DNA of 64,000 nt, from the NCBI GenBank assembly GCA_946404125.1, contig CAMJCK010000008.1:17667-81666 (forward strand), read 5' to 3'. The position numbers and the translations under genes were made by a program. Shown here in pieces: positions 44,348 to 63,812 of this stretch. Position 1 is the first letter of the stretch. Every line of letters starts with the position of its first letter. Source of the stretch: an uncultured Bacteroidota bacterium (GTDB taxonomy: Bacteria > Bacteroidota > Bacteroidia > Bacteroidales > SZUA-534). A model generated the notes under the pieces. That model was not told the origin of the DNA. It was given only the letters and a program-made list of their open reading frames with translations, and did no database searches.

Positions 44348-47300
44348 ATGAAAAAACTATTTGCCAAGTTTTTCGCAGTTATGGCTATGGCCATAGGTAC
44401 TGCTGTGTCAGTTTTCGGACAAAACGGTTTCACTTATCAGGCGGTCATCCGCGACTCGGAGGGCGTGCTGGTCACCGGCAGGCAGGTTGAGGTCACGTTC
44501 AGCCTGAAGCACGACGGCACCGTCTACTACTCCGAGAAGCAGGAGGTGAGGACCAACGAGTACGGCAACATCCAGGTTGTCGTGGGCGAGGGAGAGAAGC
44601 TCGACGGCGACTTCGCCAGCGTGCCGTGGAGCACCTTCGACATCAAGATGGAGGTGTCCGTGGAGATTGACGGCAAGCACACAACCCTCGGCGAGGTACC
44701 GGTGCAGGGAGCGCCGTACGCGATGCACGCGCAGAAGGCCGGAGGCATCACGTCGAAGAATGCCAACACCAAGGACGGCGACGCTCTGTTCGCCGTTAAC
44801 GACGCCAGCGGCAACCCCGTGTTCGCCGTTTACGCCGACGGCATTGTGGTGTATGTTGACGACACCGAGACAGCCAAAGCCAAACGCAGCGGCTTTGTGG
44901 TTACCGGACGCTCGGCCACGAAGGGGGAGAGCACGACAGAATACTTCTCGGTAACAGCCGAGGGCACACAGATATACGTTGACGACGTGGCCGACAAGGC
45001 CAAGCGCAGCGGCTTCGTAGTCACGGGCCGCTCGGCCACCAAGGACGGCGACGCAGCCGACTACCTCAAGGTGGGCGGCGAGGGCACCACGATATTCATC
45101 GACGACGACTCGTCGAAAGCCAAACGCAGCGGCTTTGTGGTGACAGGCCGCTCGGCCACCAAGGACGGCGACGAGCCGCAGTACTTCACGGCCACAACAG
45201 AAGGAACGACAGTGTATGTTGACGACACCTCGGCCGACAAGGCCAAACGCAGCGGCTTCGTAGTGACGGGCCGCTCGGCCACCAAGGGCGGCGACGCCGA
45301 CGACTATATGTCAATCGACGGCAGCGGCACACAGGTGTACGTTGACGGACTGGACTCCGACAAGGCCAAGAGAAGCGGCTTTGTGGTTACAGGGCGCTCG
45401 GCTAGCAAGGCCGAGGAGGACACGCTGTTCGCCATCGAGGGCGGATACACCCGCGTGTACATCAACGACGAGGATGAGGACAAGGCCAAGAGGAGCGGAT
45501 TTGTTGTGACAGGCCGCACCGCCTCAAAAGACACCTCAGCCACCAATATCTTCAACGTGAGCGGTGACGGCAACTTGGATATTCTGACCAACGACTTCAC
45601 CGTGAACGACACGCCGGAGGAGACGGAGGAGACGGACACCGCGGCCGTGCAGCCGCAGCCCGGCGACACCACCGGGACACCAGCCCCGGCCCCGGTCATA
45701 CCGAAGCCGAAGAGCCTGTTCACCATCAGCAGCGGAAACGTTCAGGTGGGCACCGAGATGGTTATGATGGGCGACGTCGCCAAGACGATCGAGGCCGACA
45801 CCATCAGTGTTGACACCGTAGAGGCCGAGTTCCCGCAGATAGCGAAGATTGTTGACCGCGCCGACACCATCAGCTGCGCCCCGTACAAGCCGTTCATCTA
45901 TGGCAACGACAGCGACAGCGAGGGATACACCCTGCTTGGAATCTACATTAACGGATCGTTGGCGAAAATCACAGCCACCGACTCGCGCAAGAACAAAGTC
46001 ATACTCTTCGACGCCGACGGCAACGTGATAAAACGCCAGAGAAACGCCACCGTGGCAGTTCTTATGCCCGAGGGCGACACGCAGATATACATCAGGCCTC
46101 TGAAGGCGACAAGCCAGACCATCAGCTTCGGCCTGATGAAGAAGAACGCCGTCGAGCCGTACCAGTACGTCAAGGTTGAGGCCGAGATAGAGGCTTCGGC
46201 CGGAGTTCCGTACAAGGTTAGGACGAGCAGCAACTACGGCGGCCAGATTGTCATAGACGGCACCGTGGCCTACGGCGACCAGCCGACCTTCGAGCCTGTG
46301 CCGATGACCGGCTACAAGTTCGTTCGCTGGAGCGACGGAAGCACGAGGGCCAAACGCACCTTCACCATCCTCGACGACTTCGAGATATCGGCCGAGTTCG
46401 AGCGTATGAGCTACGTTGTCGCTGTTAAATCCGACAACGAGCTGTACGGAACGGTTACCGGCAGCGGCTCGGGCACCTACTGGCACGGCGACACGCTTAG
46501 AGTTGAGGCGGAGCCGGCTACGGGCTACTACTTCAGCAACTGGAGCGGCGCGGAGCTTGGCGACAGCCAGCAGAGCAGCAGCCTTGCGCTGGAGGTGACA
46601 TCGAAACTGAAGCTGATAGCGCACTTCGGCGTGAAGCAGTACACCATAACATTCGACACCGACGGCGGCAGCGAGATAGAGCCGGCCGTTGTGTACTACC
46701 AGGACAAGGTGACCGCGCCCGCCGAGCCGCAGAGAGAGGGCTACCGCTTCCTGGATTGGGAGCCGCGGCTTCCGAAAGAGATGCCTGCGGAGGACCTGAC
46801 CGTGAAGGCTACGTGGAGCGTCAAGCAGTACCTGATCACGTTCGACACCGACGGCGGCACCCCGGTTGACATTATAGACGCCAACTACGGCGAGGCCGTC
46901 ACAACCCCGGAGGCCCCGACCAGAGAGGGCCACACCTTCGCAGGCTGGAGCGACAGCATACCGGCCGTGATGCCGGCGCGCGACTTGAGAATCAAGGCGT
47001 TGTGGACTGTTAACCAGTACACCATCAAGTTCGATACCGACGGCGGCAGCAAGGTTGACAGCATAACAACGGACTACGGCACCAAGATTGCCGCACCTGA
47101 GAATCCGACCAAGGAGGGCTACACCTTTGCCGGTTGGAAGCCAGAGCTTCCGGCCACAATGCCTGCCGAGCTGACAGTCTGCACTGCACAGTGGAGCCTG
47201 AACGCACACAATATTATATATGTGGTTGACGACACCGTTTATGCCACCATCGACAGCGTGAACTACGGCGATGAGATTGAGCCGATAGACGCACCCGAAA

Positions 47301-50300
47301 GGACCGGCTACACCTTCAGCGGATGGAAGTTCAACGGCAAGGATGAGCTGCCGAAGACAATGCCCGACAGCGACATCACCATTACCGGCGGCTTCACGGT
47401 TAACCAGTACACCATCAAGTTCGAGACCGACGGCGGAAGCAAGGTTGACAGCATAACAATGGATTACGGAGCGAAGGTTACAGCACCTGAGAATCCGACC
47501 AAAGAGGGCTACACCTTTGCCGGTTGGAAGCCAGAGCTTCCGGCCACAATGCCTGCCGAGCTGACAGTCTGCACTGCACAGTGGAGCCTGAACGCACACA
47601 ATATTATATATGTGGTTGACGACACCGTTTATGCCACCATCGACAGCGTGAACTATGGCGATGATATTGAGCCGATTGACGCACCCGAAAGGACCGGCTA
47701 CGTGTTTAGCGGATGGCAGAATGTGCCTGCGACGATGCCCGACAGCACCGTCACCATCAGCGGATGGTTCACCGCGGGCTCTGTAACGCTCACGTTCACA
47801 GATGAGAACGGCGAGAACCCGATTGTGATTGCCGGCAACTACGGCGAGAAGGTTAAGATGCCGGAGAACCCGACCAAAGTGGGCTACACCTTCGCAGGCT
47901 GGACACCTGAGGTACCGGCCACAATGCCGGCCGAGGACGCCACCTTCAAGGCCACCTGGAGCGTTAACCAGTACACCATCAAGTTTGAGACCGACGGCGG
48001 AAGCAAGGTTGACAGCATAACAATGGACTACGGTGAGAAGATTGCCGCGCCGGAGAATCCGACCAAAGAGGGCTACACCTTCGCGGGATGGGATCCCGAG
48101 CTGCCCGAGACGATGCCTGTAAACGGAGCGACCTACACGGCGCAATGGACTGTGAACCAGTACACCATCAAGTTTGAGACCGACGGCGGAACCGAGGTTG
48201 ACAGCATAAAGATGAATTACGGCGCGTCGGTTACAGCACCTGAGAATCCGACCAAAGAGGGCTACACCTTTGCCGGTTGGAAGCCGGAGATACCGGCCAC
48301 AATGCCAGCCGAGCTGACAATCTGCACGGCACAATGGAGCCTGAACTCACACAATATTATATATATGGTTGAAGACACAGTCTATGCAACCATAAAGGAT
48401 GTGGCATACGGCACTGAGATTGAGCCTGTTACGATTGCCAGCAAGCCGGGCTACGACTTCAGCGGCTGGATGCTCAACGGCGAGGACGAGATGCCGAAGA
48501 CAATGCCCGACTGCACTGTTGTGCTCAGCGGCAAGTGGACGGCAAGCGACAAGACCGAGTACACGGTGATTGTCTATGTTCAGAACGCCGACAACAAGGA
48601 GTATGGCGAGCTGCCGGAAAGCAGCGAGACCTACTACGGCACCACCGGCACTATGACCAACTATGAGCCGGAGGAGCGCGAGGGCTTCGGGGCGGATGTT
48701 TCGCAGAAAGAAATCAGCGGCGACGGCTCGACGAAGATTTACGTCTACTACAACCGCATCAGCTATGAGATGAACTGGGGCGCCAACGGCGGCCAGTTTG
48801 AGGAAGGCACGACAATGGTGTTTGACACGCTCGCCTACGGAGCGAAGGTTGCAATGCCGAAGAGTCCGACCAGGGAGGGCTACACCTTCGCGGGCTGGAG
48901 CGACACACTGGCAACAATGCCGGCTTCGAACGTAACCGTCACGGCGAAGTGGGAAATCAACAAGCACACAATCACATACACAATTGACGGCGAAGTCTAT
49001 GTAACCGAAAAGAACGTGGTTTACGGAACTGAGATTAAGCCGTTTGATGGTCCCGAAAGGGAGGGCTACACCTTCATCGGATGGAAGTATGACGGCAAGG
49101 AGAAACTGCCGGAGACAATGCCCGACAGCGATGTCTTGTTCACCGGCACGTGGTCGGCAAACGACATCGTCTATGTTGTTGAGCACCTGCAGGCTGACCT
49201 GAGCGGCGAGTACACCATTCTGGCACAGCGCGATACGCTTACAGGCAAGGCAGGCGCCCAGACCGACGCCAAGGCTGAATCGTTCACCGGCTTCGAGGCC
49301 CAGACATTCAGCAACATTGAGATTGGAACCACCGACTTTGAGACAACGGTTGTCATCAACTACAAGCGCCTGAGCTACACACTGACTTGGGACGCCAACG
49401 GCGGAACCATCGACGGCAAGAGCGACAGCACCCAGACACTTCTGTTTGGGGCGCCGATAGTTGCTCCGACAGTTGAGCGCACAGGCTACGAGTGCAGCGG
49501 CTGGGCCGGTCTGGAAGTTGAGACTATGCCAGCCAAAAACCTCTCGGTTATGGCCTTGTGGGGCGCAGGCGAGGTTATCTACACCATTGAGCACAAAGGC
49601 GAGGGAGTAAACGGCGAATACACCATCATTGAGCAGAATACGAAAACCGGAACGACCGGCGAGCAGACAAAAGCCGCACCGAAAGAGTTCCCGGGCTTTA
49701 CCGCACCTGCAAGCATCGGCCAGCAGACAATCAAGGCCGACGGCTCGACAGTGGTTGAAATCCTCTACACCCGCAACAGCTATTACGTGATCTGGGACGC
49801 CAACGGCGGAACCATCGATGGCAAAGAGGCTGACACAGTGCCGGTTATATATGGTGCAACCATAAGCAAGCCTACCAATCTGGTACGCAAGGGCTACTCG
49901 TTCAGCAGCTGGACGCCGGAAGTTCCGGCCCAAATGCCGGCCAGGGACACCACCTTCAGCGCCAAGTGGGATACGCTGACCTACAGCATCACCTTCAAGG
50001 ATACCGCGGGCAGCACATTCGCGATGGCAAACCCGACGGCGTACACCGTCAACGACACAATCGTAATCGAGAATCCTGAGAAAGCAGGTTACACCTTCCA
50101 GGGCTGGACTGGCGGCAAGTGGACAACAGCCACCAAGGATATTGTTATCTTGAACGATACAGGCCGCATTGAGCTGAAAGCCAATTGGAACGCCGATGTA
50201 ACCTTATACAAGGTTCTGCACAAATATGAAAATCTTACCACAGGCTACACTGTTGAAACTGAGCGTCTTTCGGGCTTGACCGGCAGCACGACAACGGCTC

Positions 50301-53300
50301 AGCCGCAGCCGCGTACCGGATTCACGGCTCCCGAGTTTGCCAGCATTCAGCAGCAGACAATCCGCCCGGGCAGCGACACCACAACAATCGAAATCGTCTA
50401 CACCCGCAACAGCTACGACCTGACTTGGAAGGATGGCGATGAAACTATTGACACCGAGCACATTAGGTTTGAGGCCGTAGTGACAATGCACAGCTCGCTC
50501 ACCCTTGACGGTTACACTTTCAAAGGCTGGAGCGACACTCTGACCACAATGCCGGCCGCAAGCACCACACTGACAGCCGTTTGGGAAATCAACCAATACA
50601 CCATCGCATTCGAATCGAATGGTGGCAGCGCAGTTGACGCAATCACAGCCGATTACGATGCTGATGTTACTGCTCCGGCCAACCCGACACGTGAGGGCTA
50701 CACCTTCAAGGGTTGGGCAACCACGGCAACCGCAACGGCTGACGATGTTGTGACAATCGCAAGCAAAATGCCGGTTGGCGGCGCAACATACTACGCCGTT
50801 TGGGCAATCAACCAATACACCATCACCTATGATTTGGATGGTGGCACAGTTGCAACAGCCAACGCCGGGGACTACACCGTTGTAAGCGAGGATATTACCC
50901 TCAACAACCCGACCCGCACGGGCTACACCTTTGCAGGTTGGACCGGCACTGGTTTGAGCGAGGCGACAACAGAGGTTACCATTGCCAAAGGCTCAACTGG
51001 AAACCGCACATTCACAGCTACTTGGTCGCCAATATCGTACACTATAACCGTTACGGCCACCCCCGCTGAGGGCGGAACAGCAACAGGCGGCGGCTCTTAC
51101 GATTACGACGGAACAGCCACTCTTAAAGCCACTCCAGCTACTGGTTATGACTTTATCGGTTGGGACGACGGCGTTACAACCGAACAACGCACCGTTAACA
51201 TCACGGGAGCGGCAAGCTATGTTGCCAACTTCACCAAAAAGACCTTTACGGTAACAGCCTCGGCCAATGAGGCGGAAGGCTCGGTAACTATTTCAGGCAC
51301 GGCGGTTAACGGCAAATACGAGTACGGCTCAACCATTGCGATTACCGCCACACCGGCCACTGGTTATCACTTTGTGAACTGGAACGGCAAGGACGAACTG
51401 AAAGATGCGGAAACCAGTTTTACAGTCACGAAAGACAGCGCGCTCACGGCCAACTTTGCCATCGACCAATTTACCTTGACCTTCGGCTCGACCGACGAAA
51501 CACTGGGCACAGTTGCCGCAAAAGCCAACGGCAAAACCATTGCCAGCGGCAGCAAAGTTGACTACGGCACCGAGGTGACACTCACCGCCACACCGGTGGC
51601 GCACTATCACTTCCACGGCTGGAACGACGCCTACAGCTATAGCGAGCGTACAGTGACAGTGAGTGATGATGTTGAATATGTGGCAGCGTTCGCGCCCGAT
51701 ATTTACGACATAACTCTGGTTGCAAACAATGGCACTGACGACGAGCCTGACGAAATGAGTATTACTTACGGCACCGCCACAACTCTGAAACAGAACAATT
51801 TTGAAAGGCCGGGCTATACATTCGCAGGCTGGGCACTCGAGGAGGGTGGTGAACCTGTTTTTGCCGATAAGGCCAACCTCTATGAAAAAGACAATGCTGA
51901 CACCTGGATTCTCAGCAGTACCACATTCTACGCCAAGTGGACAGCCAACACCAACACTCCGTACTCGGTTGTGGTGTATAAGCAGAAAGTTGACGGCAGC
52001 GGCTACGATGCAGAAACTCTGCAGATGACCGGCACCACCGGCACCGAAGTCAATTACGAGGAGAAGTTTACCGGCTTCACGCTGAACCCGTCCGAGCCAG
52101 TGACCATCAGCGGTGACGGAGATACGCAACTTGAGGTTTACTACTTGCGCAACAGCTACAAACTGACCTGGGACGCCAACGGCGGCAAGTTTGAGAGTGG
52201 CAAGGCGGATTCGGTTGCTACCGTGGCTTATGGGGCTAATGTGGAGATGCCTAAGACGGCGCCCAAGAAGACGGGCTACACCTTCAAAGGCTGGAGCGAC
52301 ACTCTGACCACAATGCCGGCTGAGAACACAACCCTGACAGCCGTTTGGGCTATCAACAAGTACACAGTGATCACACCCGATGCCTACAACGGCACCGTTA
52401 CGGGCGCGGGAACATACGACTATGGCACCGAAGTGACCATTACGGCCACACCCGATGCACACTACCAGTTTGTGAGCTGGAACGGCAACATCGAGTTGGG
52501 TGGCCCAACAGCCAGCTTCACGGTGACGAAAGACACCACGCTGGAAGCCACCTTTGAGCCCATTATGTACGCGCTCAGCTGGGATGCCAACGGCGGCAGC
52601 GATTTGACCGGCTCGTACACCATCGGTAGGTTGCCATTCGGCGAGTCAATTAGCGCTCCCGACGCACCCACACGCGCGGGCTACCAGTTCCTTGGCTGGG
52701 CAACCACGGCTGATGCCACCGAAGCAGTGACCGTGGCCGCAACAATGCCCGATACCGATGTAACATATTATGCAGTATGGAAGCTGCTCACCACGCTTTA
52801 TGTGGCTCCGGAGGCTGGCTCGCCGGCACTCGGAACGGCCGATAAACCGTTTGGCTCGATTGCCGATGCTGCGGCGGCGATGAACAGCGACACCGCCAAC
52901 TACACCATCCGCATCAGCGGAAAGATTGCCGGCACACAGAAACTTGCCAACACATTGAACGGCCGGGCCAAGAGCATCACCCTCTGCGGCCTCACGGGCA
53001 ACACCGCCGACAGTCTCTATGGCAACAACGCGGGCACGGTGCTTATCGATAGCACAACAGTTCCGGTAACGGTTAAGAACCTGAAGATTTCGGGCGGAAA
53101 CGCCGTGAAAGGCGGCGGCATCATAGTGGCTTCAGGAGCCACAGTTACGCTTGAAAGCGGAGCTCTGATTGGCGGAACAGCCGGCACTGCAGCAGCAAGC
53201 AGCAACTCGGCTTGTGCAAACTATGCGCAGCAGGGGGGTGGCGTTTATAGCGAGGGAACGCTCATTCTGAAAAACGGATCTGCAGTAATTTATAATTATA

Positions 53301-56300: not shown

Positions 56301-59281
56301 GAGCCAACATTGTGCTTGAGGGTGATGATTGCAAGGATATGTTCCAAAATTGCTCGAAACTTGTATCGGCCGATTTGCGGGGCTTCAATACTGAATATGT
56401 CGAGGATATGAGCTTTATGTTCGATGGTTGCCGGGCTCTTGCCACTCTCGATGTGAGCGGTTTCAACACAAGCAATGTGAGAACAATGTCTGATATGTTC
56501 GATGTTTGCGAAGCCATCACCAAGCTTGATTTGAGTAACTTCAACACAAGCAATGTGACCGATATGAACGATATGTTCAGGTATTGTTCGTCTCTCGAAG
56601 CTGTCGATTTGAGCAGTTTCAACACCGAGAAGGTTGAATTAATGAGTGCTATGTTCATCTGGTGCGAAAAACTTACCACGCTCGATTTGAGTAGCTTCAA
56701 CACCGCAAAAGTCTATAATTTAAGCGGTATGTTCACTGGTTGCACGGAACTCAAAACCATCTACGCCGCAAGCGAAGCCAATTGGGGTGTAAGCGACGAC
56801 CCGTATTTTGTGTCGGGTGATATGTTCAAAGATTGCTCGAAGCTAGTAGGCGGCAGCGGCACCACATTCAATAGCAGTGCCATTGATGCCACCCGCGCCC
56901 GCATTGACGGCGGTGAGGGTAATGAGGGTTACTTCACCATCAAGCCCATTAGCTACTACTACATCACCCCGGGTTTGGACGATTACACCGGCCATACCGG
57001 CCTCACAGCCGAGCAGGCTCTGCCAAATATCGATTCGGCACTTGCAAGAATAAGCGGTGAAGGTTCGGATGGCATCACATACTTTCTCAAAATTAGCGGT
57101 GGCCTCACTGGCCAACAATCCATTGGCGATACGCTCAACGGCAAGGCGAGGCGGATTGTGCTGGAGGGCGTTACAGGCAATACAGTCGACAGCCTCTATG
57201 GAAACAACGTCGGCATAGTGCTTACCGTTGCCACCTCTGTGCCAGTTGAAATTCGCAACTTAAAAATCACCGGCGGGAAGGCAGCAAAGGGCGCCGGTGT
57301 TTATGTTGATAATGCCAATGTAACTATCGGCGACGGAACGTTGATTGCCAATAATATAGCAGATGGAGACGGCGGTGGCGACGCTTTAGGCGGTGGTGTT
57401 TATGTTGGCAATGGTGGCTATGTTAGAATGACAGACGGCATAATCAGTGGTAATATAGCTGCCGGCACTGGTTTTGGTAGCAATTATGGCGCTGGTGTTT
57501 GTATTTACAGAGGTGGTACATTCACTATGGATGGAGGCGAGATAATCAACAATACATCTAAAGGAGGCATATATCTTGGGGGAAGCGGCGGCGGTGTTAT
57601 GGTTTTTCCAAGTGCAACGTTTAGTATGAATGCCGGAACAATTAGTGGCAATATAGTTGAAAATGGCAGGGACGAAGGCGGTTATGAAGGTAGTGGTAAA
57701 GGTGTTTTTGTGTTCGGTGCTCAAGCAGGAGAAGAGGGAGGCACCTTTATTATGGGCGGCAATGCACAGATAGCCAGTGATAACGATGTTTATCTGTGCG
57801 AAGGTACGGTTATCACCATTGCCAGCGTACTCGATAATATGTATGCGGGCACCATCACCCCGCAGAGTTACCCTGAGAGCTACACAACGGAGCTTCCGGT
57901 ATTTGCTTTTGCCGACGGCGTTGACGGCAAGCAGGGCGTCAAGTTCAAAGTGACACCCGAGCAGCGCGGTGGCAAAACATACTACTGGTACACCAATGGT
58001 GGAGGTAAGATTAGCAAAGACCAGTGCCGCATCAATGTGCCGAACGATGCCGCCCACCCGTATGTCCTCACTTACGACTCGGAATATAAAATTTCTTCCG
58101 ATGCTGCCGGTCACCCCGAGGTTTATATCGCTAAAGATGTTTCAGGCGTCACAACCTCACTCAGCTACTACGTAACATTGGATGGCTACAAGCGGGTTTC
58201 GCCACGATATCACAGTAGTTTTAGTATGTACAACTATAACTCTGGCGTAAAGTTCTACTATCATATCACGCTCGAGGGCGATAATTCCATCCAAAACAAC
58301 GACAGAGCACCCCTTTTCTATGGGGGAGCTGGCAATGCCGAACTGATATTCGATGCCACCTCAGCCACCGGTGGCACACTTTCGCTCTCAGTAACCGATG
58401 CCAGCAACAACGCTTTCTATCTTGAACCCGGATCGGGCACTATAAACTTCAAGGTTGCCGATGGCTGCACGTTCACCGGCACAGTTGGCGAAACAACCTA
58501 CAGCGATATTACCGAGTTCTTCAATGCTGCCAAAACAAACTCAAGCGCAAGCTTCACGGTTAAGCGCTGGGCCGTCAGCGAGAACGGCCACCAATATGTT
58601 GATTTAGGCCTTACAAGCGGCACCCTTTGGGCAACAACCAACGTGGGTGCAACAAATCCGCAGGATTACGGCGATTACATTGCTTGGAGCGAGACGGAGC
58701 CGCTCTACGCAACACTAGACCCGCTTACTTGGAGAGCAGACAAGGATACTTCGGGTTATTCGTGGGTAAACTTCACATTATCAGATGGAGATAGTGAAAA
58801 CTTTACCAAATATAATAGCACCGATGGCAAAACCATCCTCGACCCTGAAGATGATGCCGCCACCGTCAACTGGGGCAGCGGTTGGGCAACACCTACACCC
58901 GCCGAAGCTTGTGAACTTGAAAAAGAGTGCTATTGGGAGTGGACAACCAATTACAATGGTACGGGCGTTGCGGGTTACATTGTTTACAAATCAGTTGACA
59001 AGAGTAAGGACTATAATGAAATCAGCAACCAGAAAGTATCTTCGCGAAAACACGACTCTGGTCATACCTATTCACCATCAACCGACGCGCACATTTTCCT
59101 TCCAGCGGCGGGTCGTTTCACTTTCAAAACTGTGGTAGACCCATCCATCGGTTTCTTCATGACGGCTTCCCCGGGTGGTTCTGACGCACAACTTATGCAA
59201 GTTGGGTCAAGCTTAACTCAATATGGTTATGGCTATCCCCGCCGCACGGGTTTCTCGGTTCGTCCGGTGAAGAGGCCATAG
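44348..59281 (+). CDS. Giant mosaic cell-surface protein
   Basis: A single uninterrupted 14.9-kb ORF.
- Signal peptide MKKLFAKFFAVMAMAIGTAVSVFGQ.
- Conserved N-terminal module with six KAKRSGFVVTGR cores.
- Dozens of Listeria-Bacteroides (Flg_new) and InlB-B-type repeats, recognised by recurring GY.F.GW motifs.
- Two Gly-rich right-handed beta-helix-like regions (~52.8-53.9 kb and ~56.95-57.9 kb).
- DUF6273-like segment: EPIKWDI, DKLFLLNNDEA, WMLRSP, YGVVPALCL.
- FGE-sulfatase/SUMF1 motifs: RPVETVSWYDA, YRLPTEAEWEY, GNVYEWCWDW, RVTRGG.
- DUF285/BspA-type LRRs: FNTSNVTDMNDMF, about five copies.
- C-terminal FISUMP/DUF1566-like domain: GTLWATTNVGA, IFLPAAGR, GFSVRPV.
- A -7 box TATCTTTG lies at 44275-44282. 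Confidence 0.85.
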   Translation: MKKLFAKFFAVMAMAIGTAVSVFGQNGFTYQAVIRDSEGVLVTGRQVEVTFSLKHDGTVYYSEKQEVRTNEYGNIQVVVGEGEKLDGDFASVPWSTFDIKMEVSVEIDGKHTTLGEVPVQGAPYAMHAQKAGGITSKNANTKDGDALFAVNDASGNPVFAVYADGIVVYVDDTETAKAKRSGFVVTGRSATKGESTTEYFSVTAEGTQIYVDDVADKAKRSGFVVTGRSATKDGDAADYLKVGGEGTTIFIDDDSSKAKRSGFVVTGRSATKDGDEPQYFTATTEGTTVYVDDTSADKAKRSGFVVTGRSATKGGDADDYMSIDGSGTQVYVDGLDSDKAKRSGFVVTGRSASKAEEDTLFAIEGGYTRVYINDEDEDKAKRSGFVVTGRTASKDTSATNIFNVSGDGNLDILTNDFTVNDTPEETEETDTAAVQPQPGDTTGTPAPAPVIPKPKSLFTISSGNVQVGTEMVMMGDVAKTIEADTISVDTVEAEFPQIAKIVDRADTISCAPYKPFIYGNDSDSEGYTLLGIYINGSLAKITATDSRKNKVILFDADGNVIKRQRNATVAVLMPEGDTQIYIRPLKATSQTISFGLMKKNAVEPYQYVKVEAEIEASAGVPYKVRTSSNYGGQIVIDGTVAYGDQPTFEPVPMTGYKFVRWSDGSTRAKRTFTILDDFEISAEFERMSYVVAVKSDNELYGTVTGSGSGTYWHGDTLRVEAEPATGYYFSNWSGAELGDSQQSSSLALEVTSKLKLIAHFGVKQYTITFDTDGGSEIEPAVVYYQDKVTAPAEPQREGYRFLDWEPRLPKEMPAEDLTVKATWSVKQYLITFDTDGGTPVDIIDANYGEAVTTPEAPTREGHTFAGWSDSIPAVMPARDLRIKALWTVNQYTIKFDTDGGSKVDSITTDYGTKIAAPENPTKEGYTFAGWKPELPATMPAELTVCTAQWSLNAHNIIYVVDDTVYATIDSVNYGDEIEPIDAPERTGYTFSGWKFNGKDELPKTMPDSDITITGGFTVNQYTIKFETDGGSKVDSITMDYGAKVTAPENPTKEGYTFAGWKPELPATMPAELTVCTAQWSLNAHNIIYVVDDTVYATIDSVNYGDDIEPIDAPERTGYVFSGWQNVPATMPDSTVTISGWFTAGSVTLTFTDENGENPIVIAGNYGEKVKMPENPTKVGYTFAGWTPEVPATMPAEDATFKATWSVNQYTIKFETDGGSKVDSITMDYGEKIAAPENPTKEGYTFAGWDPELPETMPVNGATYTAQWTVNQYTIKFETDGGTEVDSIKMNYGASVTAPENPTKEGYTFAGWKPEIPATMPAELTICTAQWSLNSHNIIYMVEDTVYATIKDVAYGTEIEPVTIASKPGYDFSGWMLNGEDEMPKTMPDCTVVLSGKWTASDKTEYTVIVYVQNADNKEYGELPESSETYYGTTGTMTNYEPEEREGFGADVSQKEISGDGSTKIYVYYNRISYEMNWGANGGQFEEGTTMVFDTLAYGAKVAMPKSPTREGYTFAGWSDTLATMPASNVTVTAKWEINKHTITYTIDGEVYVTEKNVVYGTEIKPFDGPEREGYTFIGWKYDGKEKLPETMPDSDVLFTGTWSANDIVYVVEHLQADLSGEYTILAQRDTLTGKAGAQTDAKAESFTGFEAQTFSNIEIGTTDFETTVVINYKRLSYTLTWDANGGTIDGKSDSTQTLLFGAPIVAPTVERTGYECSGWAGLEVETMPAKNLSVMALWGAGEVIYTIEHKGEGVNGEYTIIEQNTKTGTTGEQTKAAPKEFPGFTAPASIGQQTIKADGSTVVEILYTRNSYYVIWDANGGTIDGKEADTVPVIYGATISKPTNLVRKGYSFSSWTPEVPAQMPARDTTFSAKWDTLTYSITFKDTAGSTFAMANPTAYTVNDTIVIENPEKAGYTFQGWTGGKWTTATKDIVILNDTGRIELKANWNADVTLYKVLHKYENLTTGYTVETERLSGLTGSTTTAQPQPRTGFTAPEFASIQQQTIRPGSDTTTIEIVYTRNSYDLTWKDGDETIDTEHIRFEAVVTMHSSLTLDGYTFKGWSDTLTTMPAASTTLTAVWEINQYTIAFESNGGSAVDAITADYDADVTAPANPTREGYTFKGWATTATATADDVVTIASKMPVGGATYYAVWAINQYTITYDLDGGTVATANAGDYTVVSEDITLNNPTRTGYTFAGWTGTGLSEATTEVTIAKGSTGNRTFTATWSPISYTITVTATPAEGGTATGGGSYDYDGTATLKATPATGYDFIGWDDGVTTEQRTVNITGAASYVANFTKKTFTVTASANEAEGSVTISGTAVNGKYEYGSTIAITATPATGYHFVNWNGKDELKDAETSFTVTKDSALTANFAIDQFTLTFGSTDETLGTVAAKANGKTIASGSKVDYGTEVTLTATPVAHYHFHGWNDAYSYSERTVTVSDDVEYVAAFAPDIYDITLVANNGTDDEPDEMSITYGTATTLKQNNFERPGYTFAGWALEEGGEPVFADKANLYEKDNADTWILSSTTFYAKWTANTNTPYSVVVYKQKVDGSGYDAETLQMTGTTGTEVNYEEKFTGFTLNPSEPVTISGDGDTQLEVYYLRNSYKLTWDANGGKFESGKADSVATVAYGANVEMPKTAPKKTGYTFKGWSDTLTTMPAENTTLTAVWAINKYTVITPDAYNGTVTGAGTYDYGTEVTITATPDAHYQFVSWNGNIELGGPTASFTVTKDTTLEATFEPIMYALSWDANGGSDLTGSYTIGRLPFGESISAPDAPTRAGYQFLGWATTADATEAVTVAATMPDTDVTYYAVWKLLTTLYVAPEAGSPALGTADKPFGSIADAAAAMNSDTANYTIRISGKIAGTQKLANTLNGRAKSITLCGLTGNTADSLYGNNAGTVLIDSTTVPVTVKNLKISGGNAVKGGGIIVASGATVTLESGALIGGTAGTAAASSNSACANYAQQGGGVYSEGTLILKNGSAVIYNYSDNGGGIFSSGGSLTIEDGAKVNLNGGGGIVLNGSAFAMTGGEVCNNNSSNGAGGIYILGTCPDVMTISGGTISGNSVGSDGGSGGIYYTGGKTLSISGTAVISGNHSVYEGGGIRNSSGLLALSGGTISGNYSEIAGRSGGGIAAIGSGYITISDSAYIPSGATINGTFKTGLGCNDVLQNWGSITVVGAITPSAACSNGIVANITPRNYENGNQLLALADTVTTTTLAAEVGKFRVSDTDTTDLTVWYIDAEGKLQKAEFTGTSYSKTGSTVQFGDWPQTIKAADVTVNERVALQRGYLTYYLGSDGEWYVKEAENAFSSDSHYKYSNGVQPAQGGTRYQYFKVEPIKWDIRTNNYSGAKMMLAQQMLTGNIPYYVQTESRTIDGTTVNANNYKYSTVRAYLNGSYEEGDTQPQTYNGQGFFQTAFTPALQAQILTTNVDDTLSDKLFLLNNDEASGAKSTTDYGKATNVYISANYKPNGSWMLRSPSGTTNMYIVDISLVGWGDGHTKAVNSTQYGVVPALCLEADFEVNFVTNCDTVIAKQMVERGACATEPAITREDYTLLGWYGDEACTEAFDFAGAIIRDTTLYAKWRQDFVEVGGTHFDSTAVEGSSVFISGREFAIQNLVAGTHEVTQTEYEAVMGVNPSHFNGTEGLEPSVGEIQAYRPVETVSWYDAIVYCNRRSQAEGLTACYKINGDTATANWGEVPTSNNDTWNAVTCDFEANGYRLPTEAEWEYLARGGNLTNSGQTTYSGSNSADSVAWYTDNSSSKTHEGRLKKANALGIYDMSGNVYEWCWDWFGNISKDTAATGASYGTYRVTRGGAKQNEDDRCEVSFRDNLSPFNSGDYLGLRVVRTNVSATTHTVSINAMNGSAIASQTVWKGYILSKPATPTREGYVFLGWYGTADYTKPFDFAGAITSDTTIYAKWGQYYAKVGGTLYYDKESTISAISQIYKNDTIELYSAVTAADLGKADEPNTIIYAIKYIQSQIGVTLVVPEGANIVLEGDDCKDMFQNCSKLVSADLRGFNTEYVEDMSFMFDGCRALATLDVSGFNTSNVRTMSDMFDVCEAITKLDLSNFNTSNVTDMNDMFRYCSSLEAVDLSSFNTEKVELMSAMFIWCEKLTTLDLSSFNTAKVYNLSGMFTGCTELKTIYAASEANWGVSDDPYFVSGDMFKDCSKLVGGSGTTFNSSAIDATRARIDGGEGNEGYFTIKPISYYYITPGLDDYTGHTGLTAEQALPNIDSALARISGEGSDGITYFLKISGGLTGQQSIGDTLNGKARRIVLEGVTGNTVDSLYGNNVGIVLTVATSVPVEIRNLKITGGKAAKGAGVYVDNANVTIGDGTLIANNIADGDGGGDALGGGVYVGNGGYVRMTDGIISGNIAAGTGFGSNYGAGVCIYRGGTFTMDGGEIINNTSKGGIYLGGSGGGVMVFPSATFSMNAGTISGNIVENGRDEGGYEGSGKGVFVFGAQAGEEGGTFIMGGNAQIASDNDVYLCEGTVITIASVLDNMYAGTITPQSYPESYTTELPVFAFADGVDGKQGVKFKVTPEQRGGKTYYWYTNGGGKISKDQCRINVPNDAAHPYVLTYDSEYKISSDAAGHPEVYIAKDVSGVTTSLSYYVTLDGYKRVSPRYHSSFSMYNYNSGVKFYYHITLEGDNSIQNNDRAPLFYGGAGNAELIFDATSATGGTLSLSVTDASNNAFYLEPGSGTINFKVADGCTFTGTVGETTYSDITEFFNAAKTNSSASFTVKRWAVSENGHQYVDLGLTSGTLWATTNVGATNPQDYGDYIAWSETEPLYATLDPLTWRADKDTSGYSWVNFTLSDGDSENFTKYNSTDGKTILDPEDDAATVNWGSGWATPTPAEACELEKECYWEWTTNYNGTGVAGYIVYKSVDKSKDYNEISNQKVSSRKHDSGHTYSPSTDAHIFLPAAGRFTFKTVVDPSIGFFMTASPGGSDAQLMQVGSSLTQYGYGYPRRTGFSVRPVKRP
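44876..45529 (+). repeat. Coding array of six ~40-aa repeats with the core KAKRSGFVVTGR(S/T)A(T/S)K (giant protein)
   Basis: The first 12 core residues are identical in all six copies, while codons differ (GTGGTT/GTAGTC/GTGGTG for VV; CGC/AGA/AGG for R). The spacers are variable. Confidence 0.9.
47009..47715 (+). repeat. 390-bp in-frame tandem repeat within the giant gene (two units, second truncated)
   Basis: The units start at 47009 and 47399. 47114-47265 and 47504-47655 read identically over 152 bp. More diverged copies of the same module start near 47958 and 48153. Confidence 0.85.
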
Positions 59282-59319
59282 TGCAGGCAGAAGTTTTGTT
59301 GCTTTGAAAAACGAAAATA

Positions 59320-59353
59320 GCCTCCGGGGTTGGTGCCTTGGGGGCTTTTTTTG
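59320..59353 (+). terminator. Intrinsic terminator of the giant gene
   Basis: AGCCTCCGGGG-TTGGTG-CCTTGGGGGCT (with wobbles) followed by T7. Confidence 0.65.
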
Positions 59354-59355
59354 TT

Positions 59356-59383
59356 GGGGGGGGGCGCGGGCGGGGCGCTAGGG
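59356..59383 (+). repeat. G9 homopolymer followed by GGG, GGGG, GGG tracts (G-quadruplex-capable)
   Basis: GGGGGGGGGCGCGGGCGGGGCGCTAGGG lies immediately after the giant gene's terminator. A second G-rich unit is at 59433-59465. The 17-mer TAGGG(C/T)GCAAGGCTGGG recurs at 59379 and 59448. Confidence 0.8.
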
Positions 59384-59470
59384 CGCAAGGCTGGGCGTTT
59401 TTTTTTGCAGGGCGGCTGGGGAGATCCTTCTGCGGGGCGGGTGGCGTTAGGGTGCAAGGCTGGGGCAGTT

Positions 59471-59496
59471 TTTGAATTGCGATGACGCAATTCAAA
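59471..59496. repeat. Perfect hairpin TTTGAATTGCG-ATGA-CGCAATTCAAA
   Basis: An 11-bp perfect stem with a 4-nt loop, upstream of the RayT-like gene's promoter. Confidence 0.8.
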
Positions 59497-59608: not shown

Positions 59609-59650
59609 CGCTGGCAAAACACACTTTCACAAGCAAGAGGCATAGCAAAA

Positions 59651-60799
59651 ATGGCGGACAATACAGAACACAACAGACCTAAGTTTTGGAACCCCACCGA
59701 CACAAGCCGCCATCACCGAATGAACGACTGGGATTACTGCAACCGCGCCATTTACCATATTACGCTTGCCGTTGCCGGGCGGCGGCACTTGTTCGGCGAG
59801 TTGGTGGGCGACAGTGCCGATACTGCCCGGATAGAGCTCAATGAATTTGGGGTTCGGGTTTATCGGAAACTGTACGGCACACCGCAATTCTACGCGCCCA
59901 AAGGGTACTCTCTGCAACTCCTTGCCCTGAAAGTTATGCCCGACCATCTGCACTTTGTTATTTTCGCAAAGTCGCGGTTGCCCAAACCTATCGGGAACGT
60001 AGTTCGAGGTTTCAAGAGCGGTTGCTCCTCTCTTTTCAGGCGCACGTATGCCAAATGTGCCGAAAACGCCCAACAGCCAGAGCATACGCCGCCAGTGCTT
60101 GCCGGTTTTGTTCCGGTTTTTGAGGCGAATGGCGGTAGCATCTGGGAGAAGATACCGGCCGGCTATCACGAGCGCATTCTTTTCGGAAAAGGCCAGCTCC
60201 AAAATATGATAAACTACGTTCGCGACAACCCGCGCCGGCTGTGGCTGAAGAGGCATAATCCGGAGCTTTTCAGGCTGCACCGGCAGACCGAGGTGCGCGG
60301 ACTGACGTTCACCTCGCTGGGCAACCATTTCCTGCTCGACTGGCCGGTCAGGCAGTTGGTGGAGATGTCGCGCAGCGCCAGCGAGGAGCAGATTGAGGAG
60401 CGGCTGCAGGAGGTTTGGGCGGAGGCCCGCAGCGGGGCGGTGACCTACACGGCGGCCATCAGTCAGGGCGAGAAGCTGATTGCCTGCACCTTGCGCGAGC
60501 AGGGTTTTCCGCTGGTTATTCTTCTTTGCGATGGCTTCCCGGCCGCCGATTTGCCCGAGGCGCGCTATTTCAAGCCCGGCGGCCCATATTTTGAGGCTTG
60601 CGCCGATGGACGGTTGCTACTTTTGGAGCCGTCGGAGGCGGTGTTTCAGACGCCGGCCATTGTTGAGGCCACCAACCGCGCACTCCTTCAGAAATCGGAG
60701 GCCCGCCACACCAGTTATTCCGGGCTTGCCGGCGATTCGCAGCGCTACCGTTTTGTGGCGCTGAACCAGATTGGAAGATGGTTGGCAGAGGAGAGATGA
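59651..60799 (+). CDS. RayT/IS200-like HUH (Y1) transposase-fold protein fused to an unassigned ~170-aa C-terminal domain
   Basis: IYHITLAVAGRRHLF, MPDHLHFVI (the HUH motif), VVRGFKSG, and IWE...GYHERILF....L.NMINYVRDNP (catalytic Tyr context YxxxNP) follow the order of REP-associated tyrosine transposases. The C-terminal half has no transposase counterpart. Confidence 0.65.
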   Translation: MADNTEHNRPKFWNPTDTSRHHRMNDWDYCNRAIYHITLAVAGRRHLFGELVGDSADTARIELNEFGVRVYRKLYGTPQFYAPKGYSLQLLALKVMPDHLHFVIFAKSRLPKPIGNVVRGFKSGCSSLFRRTYAKCAENAQQPEHTPPVLAGFVPVFEANGGSIWEKIPAGYHERILFGKGQLQNMINYVRDNPRRLWLKRHNPELFRLHRQTEVRGLTFTSLGNHFLLDWPVRQLVEMSRSASEEQIEERLQEVWAEARSGAVTYTAAISQGEKLIACTLREQGFPLVILLCDGFPAADLPEARYFKPGGPYFEACADGRLLLLEPSEAVFQTPAIVEATNRALLQKSEARHTSYSGLAGDSQRYRFVALNQIGRWLAEER

Positions 60800-60925
60800 A
60801 AAGAAACATTGCACCCGCACTTATTTATTAATCTGTTGAAAACAAATTGCTAAATAATTTGCCATTCAATCAATAATGTATATATTTGCGTTTTGAAAAA
60901 TAAGATTAATTCAAAAATTAATTCT

Positions 60926-61411
60926 ATGAAAAGAAAATTAACCATTGCGGCTTTGCTGTTTGTTTCAGTACCCGCATTTTCTCAGTTCAAACAGAGCGAA
61001 GTTGTGGCTTCTGCTGGTGGATTTGAGGCCAATGCCAATTTTTCAATCAGCTACACCATTGGCGAACCTGTAGCCGGAACGCTAAAGGCTGGTGATTTGA
61101 TTGTTGTGCAAGGTTTCCAACAGGGTTATACTGTTAAGCAGGATGTTAGCGTTGCCGACGAGTGGGCCAACAACGTCACCATCTACCCGAACCCGGTTAG
61201 CAAAACACTGTATGTAGCTATGGATGAGGCTCCGGCAGGTGAGTGCACGGCGCGTCTTTTCGATATGACAGGCCGTTTGGTTGGCGAGAACAACTTCAAC
61301 GGCGATGTTCGTGTGTCGCTCGATGTTGAGGCTCTGCCGCAGGGAGCATACTTTGTGAAGATTTTTGTTGACGACCGTGCGGTAGTCAACCGTAAGATTA
61401 TGAAGTACTAA
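60926..61411 (+). CDS. Small secreted protein with T9SS C-terminal sorting domain
   Basis: Signal MKRKLTIAALLFVSVPAFSQ. The N-terminal motif is SAGG....SYTIGEPV......QGFQQ. The C-terminal TIYPNPVSKTLYV....GAYFVKIFVDDRAVVNRKIMKY matches the type A CTD. A TATATTTG box lies at 60881-60888. Confidence 0.8.
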   Translation: MKRKLTIAALLFVSVPAFSQFKQSEVVASAGGFEANANFSISYTIGEPVAGTLKAGDLIVVQGFQQGYTVKQDVSVADEWANNVTIYPNPVSKTLYVAMDEAPAGECTARLFDMTGRLVGENNFNGDVRVSLDVEALPQGAYFVKIFVDDRAVVNRKIMKY

Positions 61412-61505
61412 AGCCGGGAGGCCGCAAGCCGGGGCTTTTCTCACACGCTTGAGTATCACCGATTTGTGTGTCTTTGAATTCGACAATACATAAAAAATAA
61501 CTTAT

Positions 61506-63812
61506 ATGAAAAGAATTACTATCAGACTTATGGCAGCCATAGCGTTGTTGTTCACCACAGCAGCCGCAACAATGGCACAAGGCAGTTTCGCCTATCAGGC
61601 GGTTATCCGCACTGCCGACGGAAAAGTAGTCAGCAACCAGAAAGTTGGAATGCGATTCACTTTACTGAGCGACGGAACCTCATACTACAGCGAGGTTCAT
61701 ACCCCCACTACCAACGAGTTTGGCAACATCTCGGTAATGATTGGCAGTGGCACCAAAGAGAGCGGAGATTTTATGAATGTTCCTTGGAGCAAGATGAATC
61801 TGATGCTCAAGATTGAGGTTGATGCCAAAGGCGGAACCAACTATACCGAGTTGGGACAGACACAGCTGTTGTCGGTGCCATACGCAATGTATGCCCAGAC
61901 AGCCGGCAAGGTTGAGGCCACACAGAAGTCATCATCGGTTAACGAGCCTATTTTCGAGGTTAAGGACAAAGACGGCAACCTTGTATTTGCCGTGTACCCC
62001 GATGGAGTTAAGGTTTATGTTGACGACACCGATGTGACCAAGGCAAAACGCAGCGGCTTTGTTGTTACAGGCCGCTCGGCCACCAAAGACGGCGAGAGTG
62101 CCGACTATTTTGCAGTTAACGCCGAAGGTACTCAGGTGTTCATTGACGACACCGCAACCAGCAAGGCAAAACGCAGCGGTTTCGTAGTAACAGGCCGCTC
62201 GGCCACCAAAGGCGGTGAAAATGCCGACTATCTGGCAGTCAACGGCAATGGTACCCAGGTTTATGTTGACGACCCGGCAGAAGACAAGGCAAAACGCAGC
62301 GGTTTTGTAGTAACAGGCCGCTCAGCCACCAAAGATGCTAACGCCGACGTGCTCAAAATCGATGGCGCAGGCACTCAGGTCTTCATCGACGACAGCGTAA
62401 CCGGCAAGGCAAAACGCAGCGGCTTCGTAGTAACAGGCCGCTCGGCCACCAAAGATTCCGATGCAGCCGACTATCTGGCAATCAACGGCAACGGTACTCA
62501 GGTTTATGTTAATACCGATGTTACTGATGATAAGGCAAAACGCAGCGGTTTCGTAGTTACAGGCCGCTCAGCCACCAAAGACGAGGAACTCGACGTATTT
62601 GTAGTTGACGGTTTGGGCACTCAGGTATTCATCGATGAAACCGACGAGAGCAAGGCAAAACGCAGCGGTTTCGTAGTAACAGGCCGCTCGGCCACCAAAG
62701 ATTCGGACAGCGACTACTTCAAGGTTACCAGCGACGCAGTCAACGTAAGTATTTCATCGTTCAACGTATCCGACAAGACAACATCTGAGAGCGTGTTTGC
62801 CATCAAGCAAGGTAACGTGCAGGTTAACTCTGACTTGTTGATGACAGGTGAGGTTGGCAAGGTTGTTGACGCTGAGGCAATTAGCGACTCAATCTTCACC
62901 ATCAACCTTGTTGGCAACGAACAGGTTATTACAACTATTGATACGATTGACCCGGATGGCGCCTTGGTTGACGGTGAATATGGTATGTATGCCTTACTGC
63001 GTATCACCGATAACTCTTATGTTCCAGTTTATGAGTGGGATAGCTTGATGTTCGACGCAAGAGGTTATGCCACCACCAACAAGAAGAGCGCTGTTGTTTC
63101 TGTACGTACCACTTGGGATGGTTCCGTTGTTGTCAATCCGTTGCAGAAGGATATCAAGAACTTTACAGCTGTGTTCGGTCTGACTTGGACAAGGAGCCAG
63201 GATAATGTACAAGAGTCTTTTGTATTCAAGAAGGTTATGATTGTTTCTGAAAATCAGAGCCAGGGTCAAGGCCAGGGCGGTAATCAGTCTCAAGTACAAG
63301 GAGGATTCTACGGAGTTGAAAAGGGACATATGATTGTTAATACGTTTGAAAATGGCGAGACCCATCAATTTGATTACTACTTTCTTGACTACGGCAAAAA
63401 GGAATACTTCACTTACGAAAACGAAGATGGAAATACAATGATTTATTATACTGATTGGGAAGCAGAACCTTCTGATAATACTAAAGAATATATTTACCTT
63501 CCTGAAAATAAGGAGTGGGCATATTATACTATGGAAGCGGAACGTAGTGAACCATTTTATTATTTCGCTGGCGATGAGGATTACGCCGCAGATGGTGGTG
63601 AAATAAATGGTCTTCGAACAAAATTGTATACTGCTGATGGGCAGCAAGATTTTGATATAAAAATATATGTATATGAAGGCATTAGGGTTAGAACAGAATT
63701 TAATGACGAGGTAACCGAAAAAATTGAATCATTCGATTTCAATTCCGACGTACAGGATTTCTTCGAATGGGCAAAAGGCAAAGGTTACGATTTACCTGGA
63801 AAGCCTGAATAA
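61506..63812 (+). CDS. Paralogue of the N-terminal module of the giant protein (signal peptide, conserved domain, six KAKRSGFVVTGRSATK cores) with an unrelated AT-rich C-terminal domain
   Basis: Colinear similarity to residues 1-~615 of 44348-59281. Compare QAVIRTADGKVVSNQKV...SVPYAMYAQTAGK with QAVIRDSEGVLVTGRQV...GAPYAMHAQKAGG. Both have six identical 16-aa cores and a shared GNVQV...MMGDV/LMTGEV segment. Confidence 0.85.
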   Translation: MKRITIRLMAAIALLFTTAAATMAQGSFAYQAVIRTADGKVVSNQKVGMRFTLLSDGTSYYSEVHTPTTNEFGNISVMIGSGTKESGDFMNVPWSKMNLMLKIEVDAKGGTNYTELGQTQLLSVPYAMYAQTAGKVEATQKSSSVNEPIFEVKDKDGNLVFAVYPDGVKVYVDDTDVTKAKRSGFVVTGRSATKDGESADYFAVNAEGTQVFIDDTATSKAKRSGFVVTGRSATKGGENADYLAVNGNGTQVYVDDPAEDKAKRSGFVVTGRSATKDANADVLKIDGAGTQVFIDDSVTGKAKRSGFVVTGRSATKDSDAADYLAINGNGTQVYVNTDVTDDKAKRSGFVVTGRSATKDEELDVFVVDGLGTQVFIDETDESKAKRSGFVVTGRSATKDSDSDYFKVTSDAVNVSISSFNVSDKTTSESVFAIKQGNVQVNSDLLMTGEVGKVVDAEAISDSIFTINLVGNEQVITTIDTIDPDGALVDGEYGMYALLRITDNSYVPVYEWDSLMFDARGYATTNKKSAVVSVRTTWDGSVVVNPLQKDIKNFTAVFGLTWTRSQDNVQESFVFKKVMIVSENQSQGQGQGGNQSQVQGGFYGVEKGHMIVNTFENGETHQFDYYFLDYGKKEYFTYENEDGNTMIYYTDWEAEPSDNTKEYIYLPENKEWAYYTMEAERSEPFYYFAGDEDYAADGGEINGLRTKLYTADGQQDFDIKIYVYEGIRVRTEFNDEVTEKIESFDFNSDVQDFFEWAKGKGYDLPGKPE
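62040..62699 (+). repeat. Coding array of six ~40-aa repeats with invariant core KAKRSGFVVTGRSATK (768-aa paralogue)
   Basis: Same core, same copy number, and nearly the same position in the protein (first core at residue 179, against 177 in the giant protein). Confidence 0.9.

Follow-up and report, generated by a model that had tools for sequence, protein, structure and literature searches.

How two predicted surface proteins might reach and hold the cell surface of a Bacteroidota bacterium is the question raised by a locus from an uncultured member of the Bacteroidales (lineage SZUA-534). The window analyzed here is a 64,000-nucleotide stretch of contig CAMJCK010000008.1 (GenBank assembly GCA_946404125.1). 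Within it, four genes lie on one strand, and the first and last of these, termed A and B, begin alike. The surface route of such proteins is a puzzle because both display signals usual in this phylum, a lipobox and a type IX secretion system (T9SS) C-terminal sorting domain (CTD), are absent from A and B. The locus contains the following.

44348..59281, + strand: gene A, encoding a putative giant head-bearing fibre or adhesin of 4,977 amino acids (aa), assigned from its open reading frame (ORF), translation and domain content
59319..59346, + strand: intrinsic terminator 3' of gene A, with a 12-bp stem and a T run (folding free energy −28.4 kcal/mol, z −5.1 against shuffled sequences)
59651..60799, + strand: HUH/Y1 gene resembling REP-associated tyrosine transposases (RAYT-like), 382 aa, from sub-threshold Y1_Tnp and REP_Tyr_transpos matches
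60926..61411, + strand: gene of a small T9SS cargo, 161 aa (Por_Secre_tail, E 7e-13)
61506..63812, + strand: gene B, encoding a putative head-bearing fibre of 768 aa, from its ORF, translation and AlphaFold2 (AF2) model

The reading that we favour, at a probability of roughly 0.55, is that A and B form surface fibres resembling the mosaic adhesive trimers (MAT) of Bdellovibrio and act in functional partnership with the small T9SS protein. The evidence for it includes the relationship of the shared N-terminal head to the MAT N-domain and the recurrence of the small gene beside head genes.

The shared module and its head domain

BLASTP of A residues 1-684 against B aligned A 1-610 colinearly with B 1-577 (43% identity, E 3e-146). 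The identity is strong to about A residue 480 and weaker beyond, and the two proteins are unrelated past about residue 600. A preliminary description of this DNA had reported two same-strand genes of 4,977 and 768 codons that start with colinear homologous regions of about 600 aa and then diverge completely; the ORFs and the BLASTP alignment agree with it on both counts. The translations likewise contain, in each gene, the listed elements: a signal peptide, a QAVIR...VPYAM(H/Y)AQ domain, a GNVQV..M.G(D/E)V segment and, ahead of the latter, repeat cores (K-A-K-R-S-G-F-V-V-T-G-R). There are exactly six of these cores per protein, recurring about every 41 aa. The window holds no further copy of the head or of the shaft core besides those in A and B. 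The features of the two modules are listed below.

44348..44419, + strand: signal peptide of A (aa 1-24), free of Cys, the mature protein starting at Gln25 (from the translation)
44420..44752, + strand: A head domain, aa 25-135, a MAT-N-like β-sandwich (Bdello_MAT_N E 4.9e-6, sub-threshold)
44765..45577, + strand: A shaft, six repeats of ~41 aa with the core KAKRSGFVVTGR(S/T)A(T/S)K
44882, 45002, 45122, 45245, 45368 and 45488, + strand: starts of the A shaft cores
45578..45721, + strand: A-specific acidic/Pro-rich linker, aa 411-458, absent from B (29-residue BLASTP gap)
45722..46207, + strand: A transition (GNVQV..M.GDV) and conserved β domain, up to the end of homology with B at A residue 610
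61578..61907, + strand: B head domain, aa 25-134, a 7-stranded β-sandwich with a C-terminal helix (AF2 model of the head alone; Bdello_MAT_N match)
61938..62705, + strand: B shaft, six repeats of ~41 aa, every core exactly KAKRSGFVVTGRSATK
62046, 62169, 62292, 62412, 62538 and 62658, + strand: starts of the B shaft cores
62706..63260, + strand: B transition (GNVQV..LMTGEV) and β domain, aa ~401-585, colinear with A

B, like A, has a Sec-type signal peptide without Cys and a mature N-terminus at Gln25, and a Gln at this position is invariant across an alignment of 83 relatives. The preliminary description had noted that neither protein carries a lipobox Cys or a T9SS CTD, and both absences hold: there is no Cys within the first 30 residues of A or B, searches of Pfam and NCBIfam found no CTD of type A or B (PF18962/TIGR04183, TIGR04131) in either at E ≤ 0.01, and a CTD profile built in this analysis matched neither. 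Across the family, a CTD occurs in 1 of 111 head proteins. Pfam and NCBIfam gave no autotransporter β-barrel family in A or B, and the AF2 models contain a sandwich head and no barrel.

Modelled alone, the B head reached a predicted local distance difference test score (pLDDT) of 94.2 and a predicted template modelling (TM) score of 0.87. No close fold was found in the PDB, the best Foldseek matches being to generic Ig/C2-like sandwiches (E 4e-3, TM ≤ 0.5), and the Pfam copy used has no model for the head. The NCBIfam model NF053851 (Bdello_MAT_N, mosaic adhesive trimer family chimeric fiber protein) matched B with E 1.1e-11 (44.8 bits) and the B head without its signal peptide with E 3e-10. 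Indeed, the same model matched all 83 head proteins from GTDB species genomes, as well as 34 of 34 heads searched without their signal peptides, A among them (best E 4e-12). From these matches, we conclude that the head found in Bacteroidota and the MAT N-domain are homologous, which would put A and B on the MAT plan, though outside the curated Bdellovibrio subfamily. In Bdellovibrio bacteriovorus, the N-domain of the MAT fibres was proposed to be the cell-proximal anchor, binding an unidentified surface element (Caulton et al. 2024; PMC10769870); an anchoring role for the homologous head is therefore plausible. The module thus maps to a described family, but not to one with a known secretion route.

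The size of the head family was evaluated by searching a profile of the 34 heads against 1.84 billion cluster representatives. Clusters (50% identity) with E ≤ 1e-3 numbered 26,923, and 23,830 had E ≤ 1e-10. Among the best 150 of the 26,923, the head lies nearly always at about aa 21-133, directly after the signal peptide. At least 594 head places were confirmed in GTDB species genomes, and the taxa among the matches listed are Bacteroidales, Flavobacteriales, Chitinophagales, Cytophagales, Sphingobacteriales, Saprospiraceae and one metagenome-assembled genome of the Chlorobiota. One 916-aa protein (P0131) has an unusual architecture for the family, with six tandem head copies in place of a single N-terminal copy.

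The shaft is far less widespread. Most members of the family have no KAKRSGF repeat, which is restricted to this lineage and neighbouring ones and varies from 0 to 6 copies among homologues; giant A-like relatives carry 8-9 copies of a variant core, KAMxTGFAVSGRKAAKDG. The 16-aa core is the same in 10 of the 12 copies in A and B despite DNA that is just 65-96% identical, and 65-94% for the A cores with their nearly identical peptides, a pattern that indicates purifying selection on the core peptide and not recent homogenisation. Two B variants at 96-97% identity (P0010 and P0014) are missing whole numbers of repeats, two in one case (exactly B residues 301-382) and four in the other (exactly 219-381), reflecting either shaft-length polymorphism or the collapse of repeats in short-read assembly. 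In the monomer model of B, each shaft repeat forms one short β-hairpin with a pLDDT of 45-65, as expected if the shaft folds only as an oligomer; B aa 450-580, in the transition region, were modelled with a pLDDT of about 92. An inverse-autotransporter barrel, in which six repeats of two strands would supply 12 strands, was ruled out by the isolated, low-confidence hairpins of the AF2 model and by the lack of a barrel family match. Separately, one A shaft unit (aa 196-235, window 44933-45052) weakly resembles Pfam PF23794 (Mycobacterium phage Gp84-like; E 1.7e-4), and aa 356-395 of the homologue P0024 match this family above its cutoff (30.4 bits).

The small T9SS protein and the route to the surface

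The HUH-fold gene and the small T9SS-sorted protein described between A and B are both present, the match of the former being weak and the CTD of the latter clear. The small protein has three recognizable parts.

aa 1-19: signal peptide, mature N-terminus Gln20
60998..61123, + strand: passenger motif of 42 aa, EVVASAGGFEANANFSISYTIGEPVAGTLKAGDLIVVQGFQQ, aa 25-66 (E 5.8e-19 with a profile built from the loci)
61181..61408, + strand: type A T9SS CTD, aa 86-161 (PF18962 at aa 86-158, E 7e-13; TIGR04183)

In Salinivirgaceae-like relatives, a Por_Secre_tail protein of ~161-166 aa is encoded directly upstream of a head gene in three unrelated genomic contexts. These small proteins are homologous beyond the CTD, sharing the signal peptide, the 42-aa motif (consensus EVIASSGGNATGSGGSVSYTIGEPVYTTLTGGNGSLTQGFQQ), a short linker and the CTD. 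Of 84 complete head genes for which upstream sequence was available, 46 have a gene with motif and CTD ending close upstream on the same strand, at −4 to ~190 bp, and a further 13 stand in tandem behind another head gene. When every neighbouring ORF in 80 head loci was clustered, the small-gene family was found in 56 loci and the next commonest family in 6. The small T9SS-sorted protein is thus the sole recurrent neighbour family of head genes, phylum-wide. For a reverse census, small genes (≤260 aa) that carry the passenger motif and have downstream sequence were drawn, with the motif as seed, from an independent metagenome sample. Of these 42 genes, 27 were followed within −4 to 192 bp by a head gene and 38 had a CTD. 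A protein search with a 50-aa passenger profile returned just 10 short fragments. The single head protein with a CTD of its own also has a small gene upstream, a case that does not bear on whether a CTD is supplied in trans. Based on the recurrent pairing, we read the locus as fibre genes together with a partner delivered by the T9SS.

The spacing and composition of the pairs vary. In L132 (1775-2263 / 2260-3765), L133, L119, L016 and L042, the small-gene stop overlaps the head start by 4 nt or lies 1-2 nt away from it, which suggests translational coupling. An alternative arrangement is seen in four loci (L065 7679-8545, L088 7582-8457, L089 7592-8473 and L084 9973-10899), where motif proteins of ~290-310 aa with no CTD detected are encoded directly downstream of head genes (3-24 bp away in L065, L088 and L084). 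A further variant of ~450 aa (L093-L131, e.g. L101 431-1804), common in some metagenomes, consists of the 42-aa motif, an insert and a T9SS CTD. It is usually without a head gene 3', so the passenger motif may be a more general N-terminal element of T9SS cargo. Elsewhere in the window, a 310-aa protein (30132-31064, + strand) has a T9SS CTD as its one family match; therefore, the organism uses the T9SS. The lineage also encodes T9SS machinery: in L008, genes for PorP/SprF, PorV and a member of the Peptidase_C25 family adjoin a related pair.

Under the proposed mechanism, A and B would cross the inner membrane via Sec and be cut by signal peptidase I, so that the mature proteins begin with Gln. 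The head, a β-sandwich of ~105 aa, would be the cell-proximal end of the mature fibre, and the six-repeat shaft and transition domain would present a variable tip. In A, this tip would be a ~4,300-aa mosaic of Listeria-Bacteroides repeats, β-helix-like regions, an FGE-sulfatase-like domain, PARCEL and a C-terminal domain; in B, it would be a small β-rich domain. The small protein, exported by the T9SS as a dedicated partner of the fibres, would bind the head on the surface or already in the periplasm. In an anchor version, CTD processing would leave the mini-passenger on the surface, where the head would dock to it. In a carrier version, the complex would form in the periplasm and the CTD would take the fibre through the T9SS translocon, after which docking would proceed as in the anchor version. 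The latter, which makes the ~160-aa 'QGFQQ' mini-cargo a trans-acting T9SS adaptor for CTD-less fibres, giants of 5,000 aa among them, and then their surface tether, is possible and is put forward tentatively. T9SS cargo with a type A CTD normally loses this domain and is attached to the cell surface. We infer a surface location for A and B, physical contact between head and passenger, and a role for the partner in anchoring, export or both.

Several observations weigh against this partnership. All Bdello_MAT_N matches fall below the curated cutoff (40-45 bits vs 60). Approximately 30-45% of head genes have no adjacent small gene, and about one third of the small motif genes have no head gene 3'. 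A itself lacks a small gene of its own, the candidate being 1.6 kb downstream, past the terminator and the HUH gene. The members of a pair co-diverge (Mantel r 0.72 for head vs passenger), but the CTD does so as strongly as the passenger (r 0.71 for head vs CTD), which argues for co-inheritance and not for a specific interface. Domains of the types found in the A payload are usually monomers; therefore, A may not be a classical trimeric fibre. Finally, Bdellovibrio has MAT fibres and is not known to have a T9SS; in at least one phylum, therefore, the head can do without a partner of this kind.

The preliminary description had suggested that the N-terminal module may itself be the export or anchoring device. 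Taken at full strength, this means that the head or the whole module is self-sufficient, binding lipopolysaccharide or another outer-membrane component or engaging another translocator, with the small protein merely co-expressed. We consider this unlikely. The unpaired head genes of Bacteroidota fit it, as do tandem head-gene arrays without any small gene (e.g. L068 and L070). The 16-aa core is basic and under apparently strong purifying selection, and it could bind anionic surface polymers. The Bdellovibrio MAT fibres are surface-located with a homologous N-domain (PMC10769870). However, self-sufficiency leaves unexplained why head genes have a sole conserved neighbour (56/80 loci), often 2-20 bp away or overlapping. 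Moreover, the head is a small, soluble-looking β-sandwich, neither a barrel nor an amphipathic anchor, and the KAKRSGF shaft, confined as it is to a narrow lineage, cannot be a general export or anchoring device. Of the original suggestion, anchoring is plausible on the strength of the homology to the MAT N-domain; self-sufficiency is unsupported, and the small T9SS gene, as a conserved neighbour, points to an arrangement of two components.

Variable tails, the HUH-like gene and the genomic setting

The regions beyond the shared module were searched against Pfam and NCBIfam, A being submitted both as the whole protein and in ten pieces.

46208..59278, + strand: A payload
A aa ~640-3080: Listeria-Bacteroides/InlB B-repeat array, 20 Flg_new plus 9 Flg_new_2 repeats
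A aa 3365-3511: DUF6273
A aa 3615-3841: FGE-sulfatase domain
A aa 3994-4150: DUF285/PARCEL
A, before DUF6273 (region 1) and after PARCEL (region 2): Gly-rich β-helix-like regions, from reading of the translation, no family match
A aa ~4790-4977: C-terminal domain, no family match and no PDB sequence match
63303..63809, + strand: B tip domain, aa ~600-768, an anti-parallel β half-barrel (AF2 pLDDT about 80)

The B tail, ~300 aa of β-rich domains, had no Pfam match, and no useful PDB sequence match was obtained for B, the HUH protein or the A C-terminus. Foldseek of the full B model against the PDB gave weak LolA/RseB/EPDR1 (ependymin)-like matches (E about 1e-3, 160-190 aligned columns), which presumably belong to the tip domain. 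One homologue of B (P0013) lacks this domain.

Related genomes join the head to many other tails; this, like the linkage of A and B in relatives, favours the preliminary description of a shared head with differing payloads. Among 83 complete genomic head proteins, the tails include Peptidase_S74 (18), Lcl_C (18), collagen (12) and FISUMP (10), as well as YadA head, Kelch, serpin and BclA_C; Por_Secre_tail was found in just one. Giant A-like proteins (2,600-4,100 aa) have the types of head and shaft seen in A, followed by mosaics that are differently arranged. Some relatives match models for Ata, EmaA or BimA, and some heads weakly match Big_1. To judge from these architectures, tails are exchanged on a common N-terminal chassis over evolutionary time. 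Collagen, S74 and YadA-head modules are obligate trimers, and because they occur in relatives, the fibres are predicted to be trimeric.

A conserved head with variable tails in direct orientation is also the geometry expected for payload swapping or deletion, as the preliminary description pointed out. In such a cassette, the direct-repeat heads, perhaps aided by the HUH-like gene, would swap, fuse or delete the A and B payloads, giving phase or antigenic variation. The homologous modules in direct orientation, the HUH-like gene between them and the exchange of tails over evolutionary time fit this proposal. So would the B strain variants lacking exactly 2 or 4 shaft repeats, although these could be short-read assembly collapses. 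Against it, the longest exact DNA match between the A and B modules is 20 nt, at 43% protein identity, and no A/B chimera was found among 502 homologues. The gene order A-HUH-small-B is unchanged in 7 of 7 related contigs, in which B is 86-100% identical, and the linkage of A and B is thus kept in these relatives.

Features of the HUH-like gene also weigh against the cassette. Its Pfam Y1 match (E 1.5e-4; 22.3 bits vs a cutoff of 23) and its NCBIfam REP-associated tyrosine transposase match (E 5e-8; 32.9 vs 80 bits) are both sub-threshold, with HLHFV and Y..NP motifs visible in the protein. The gene is present in L001-L007 and absent from the head loci L008, L010 and L011; it is lineage-specific and probably outside the fibre system. 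A GC-rich 31-nt direct repeat has two copies 5' of the HUH gene (59374-59473) and a weak third 3' of the small gene (61413-61443). It has no copies elsewhere in the window, and its hairpins are not significantly stable; the idea of REP elements around a RAYT-like gene was set aside for lack of further repeat copies in the window. With little shared DNA, no chimeras and an HUH gene confined to this lineage, recombination between the two direct copies is very improbable.

That A and B are remnants of prophage or tailocin tail fibres, not cellular adhesins, is scarcely credible: some relatives are named 'tail fiber domain-containing protein' and have S74 chaperone domains, the B model gives weak, low-probability extended Foldseek matches to phage tail fibres (BFVD), and one shaft unit weakly matches Pfam Phage_Gp84, but the flanks are housekeeping genes with no phage structural or integration genes present, family members start with Sec signal peptides, which phage fibres do not have, and the neighbours in 80 head loci are unrelated cellular genes only.

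The upstream flank of the locus encodes PNPase, DHFR, RNase H, a formyltransferase, alanine dehydrogenase and a CE2 esterase; the downstream flank, read in a matching contig, contains tatA/tatC, surE and lpxB. Based on these housekeeping flanks, the locus is chromosomal, neither a prophage nor a mobile island. Identical or near-identical copies of B were found in metagenome-assembled genomes of the Salinivirgaceae (Bacteroidales). Between the small gene and B, there is no significant terminator, the hairpin there being no better than shuffled sequence. A TAnnTTTG-type box 5' of the small gene was read by eye as a Bacteroidetes −7 element. Farther upstream in the window (1258-5697, + strand), a 1,479-aa surface-type protein with a TTG start has five BspA-type leucine-rich repeat blocks and eight Flg_new_2 repeats; it has repeat types in common with the A payload and no head domain.

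Significance and comparison with known systems

Among the families of predicted surface proteins in Bacteroidota that await characterisation, that of the head-bearing proteins is one of the larger, ranging from gut Bacteroidales to marine Flavobacteriia. Homology to MAT supplies a structural and functional frame for them, that of modular adhesive fibres with swappable tips, and the pairing with the small gene suggests the missing anchoring or export step and a candidate receptor of the MAT N-domain. If the proposed partnership is true, the substrate range of the T9SS would extend past CTD-bearing proteins, and the pair would offer a two-part handle for engineering surface display. The carrier version, if true, would give ~27,000 protein clusters a piggyback route and would identify the receptor of MAT N-domains. 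In this organism, the probable products of the locus are one very large multi-domain adhesin and one short fibre, which would matter for attachment in a gut or rumen habitat. Our searches of the literature on T9SS piggyback, CTD-less substrates, and S74 with T9SS found no paper mentioning the pairing of head and T9SS mini-cargo, and we found no mention of Bacteroidota in the supplements of the MAT paper (PMC10769870).

The Bdellovibrio branch of the family was described in 2024; what differs here is the phylum, the 41-aa shaft, the giant mosaics and the T9SS mini-cargo pairing. Like A and B, MAT fibres have a signal peptide followed by a conserved β-rich N-domain without a close PDB relative, a long shaft, multi-paralogue families, and highly variable C-terminal tips that include S74-chaperone and lectin types. 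The MAT N-domain is about 130 aa, with no PDB homologue reported (PMC10769870), whereas the head described here is ~105 aa and its matches lie under the curated cutoff. The 41-aa shaft repeat is lineage-specific, A is 4-5 times longer than MAT fibres and carries its mosaic of Flg_new, β-helix and FGE-sulfatase elements, and a conserved T9SS mini-cargo gene is adjacent. In addition, the present organism is not a predator, and its fibres presumably serve to adhere to host, glycan or other cells.

Tailspikes and tail fibres of phages that end in an S74 intramolecular chaperone (endosialidase type) share the modular logic of a trimeric fibre, and many members of the head family end in Peptidase_S74. 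Unlike these, A and B have no S74 domain, possess Sec signal peptides, stand in cellular contexts and bear an N-terminal head instead of a virion adaptor. Trimeric autotransporter adhesins are anchored and exported via a C-terminal 12-stranded β-barrel. Those of the YadA/Ata kind (type Vc) are likewise modular fibres, and YadA_head repeats occur in some relatives of A and B; however, no barrel was found in A or B, and the conserved end here is N-terminal and globular. The inverse autotransporters (intimin/invasin, type Ve), whose passenger consists of repeated Ig-like domains, resemble the layout proposed for the present proteins, with an N-terminal anchoring module and a C-terminal passenger, the weak Big_1 matches of some heads being a further likeness, but the head is a 7-stranded sandwich with neither an N-terminal β-barrel nor LysM.

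The last comparison is with T9SS cargo that has a type B CTD and an adjacent PorP/SprF-like anchoring partner, such as SprB-SprF (PMC9143113). In both cases, a Bacteroidota surface adhesin, sometimes giant, is displayed via a dedicated protein encoded alongside it, as is proposed here for A and B. In SprB-SprF, it is the cargo that bears the CTD, with an outer-membrane PorP-like barrel as its partner; the fibres described here lack a CTD and would be partnered by a type A CTD cargo of ~160 aa whose passenger is 42 aa long.

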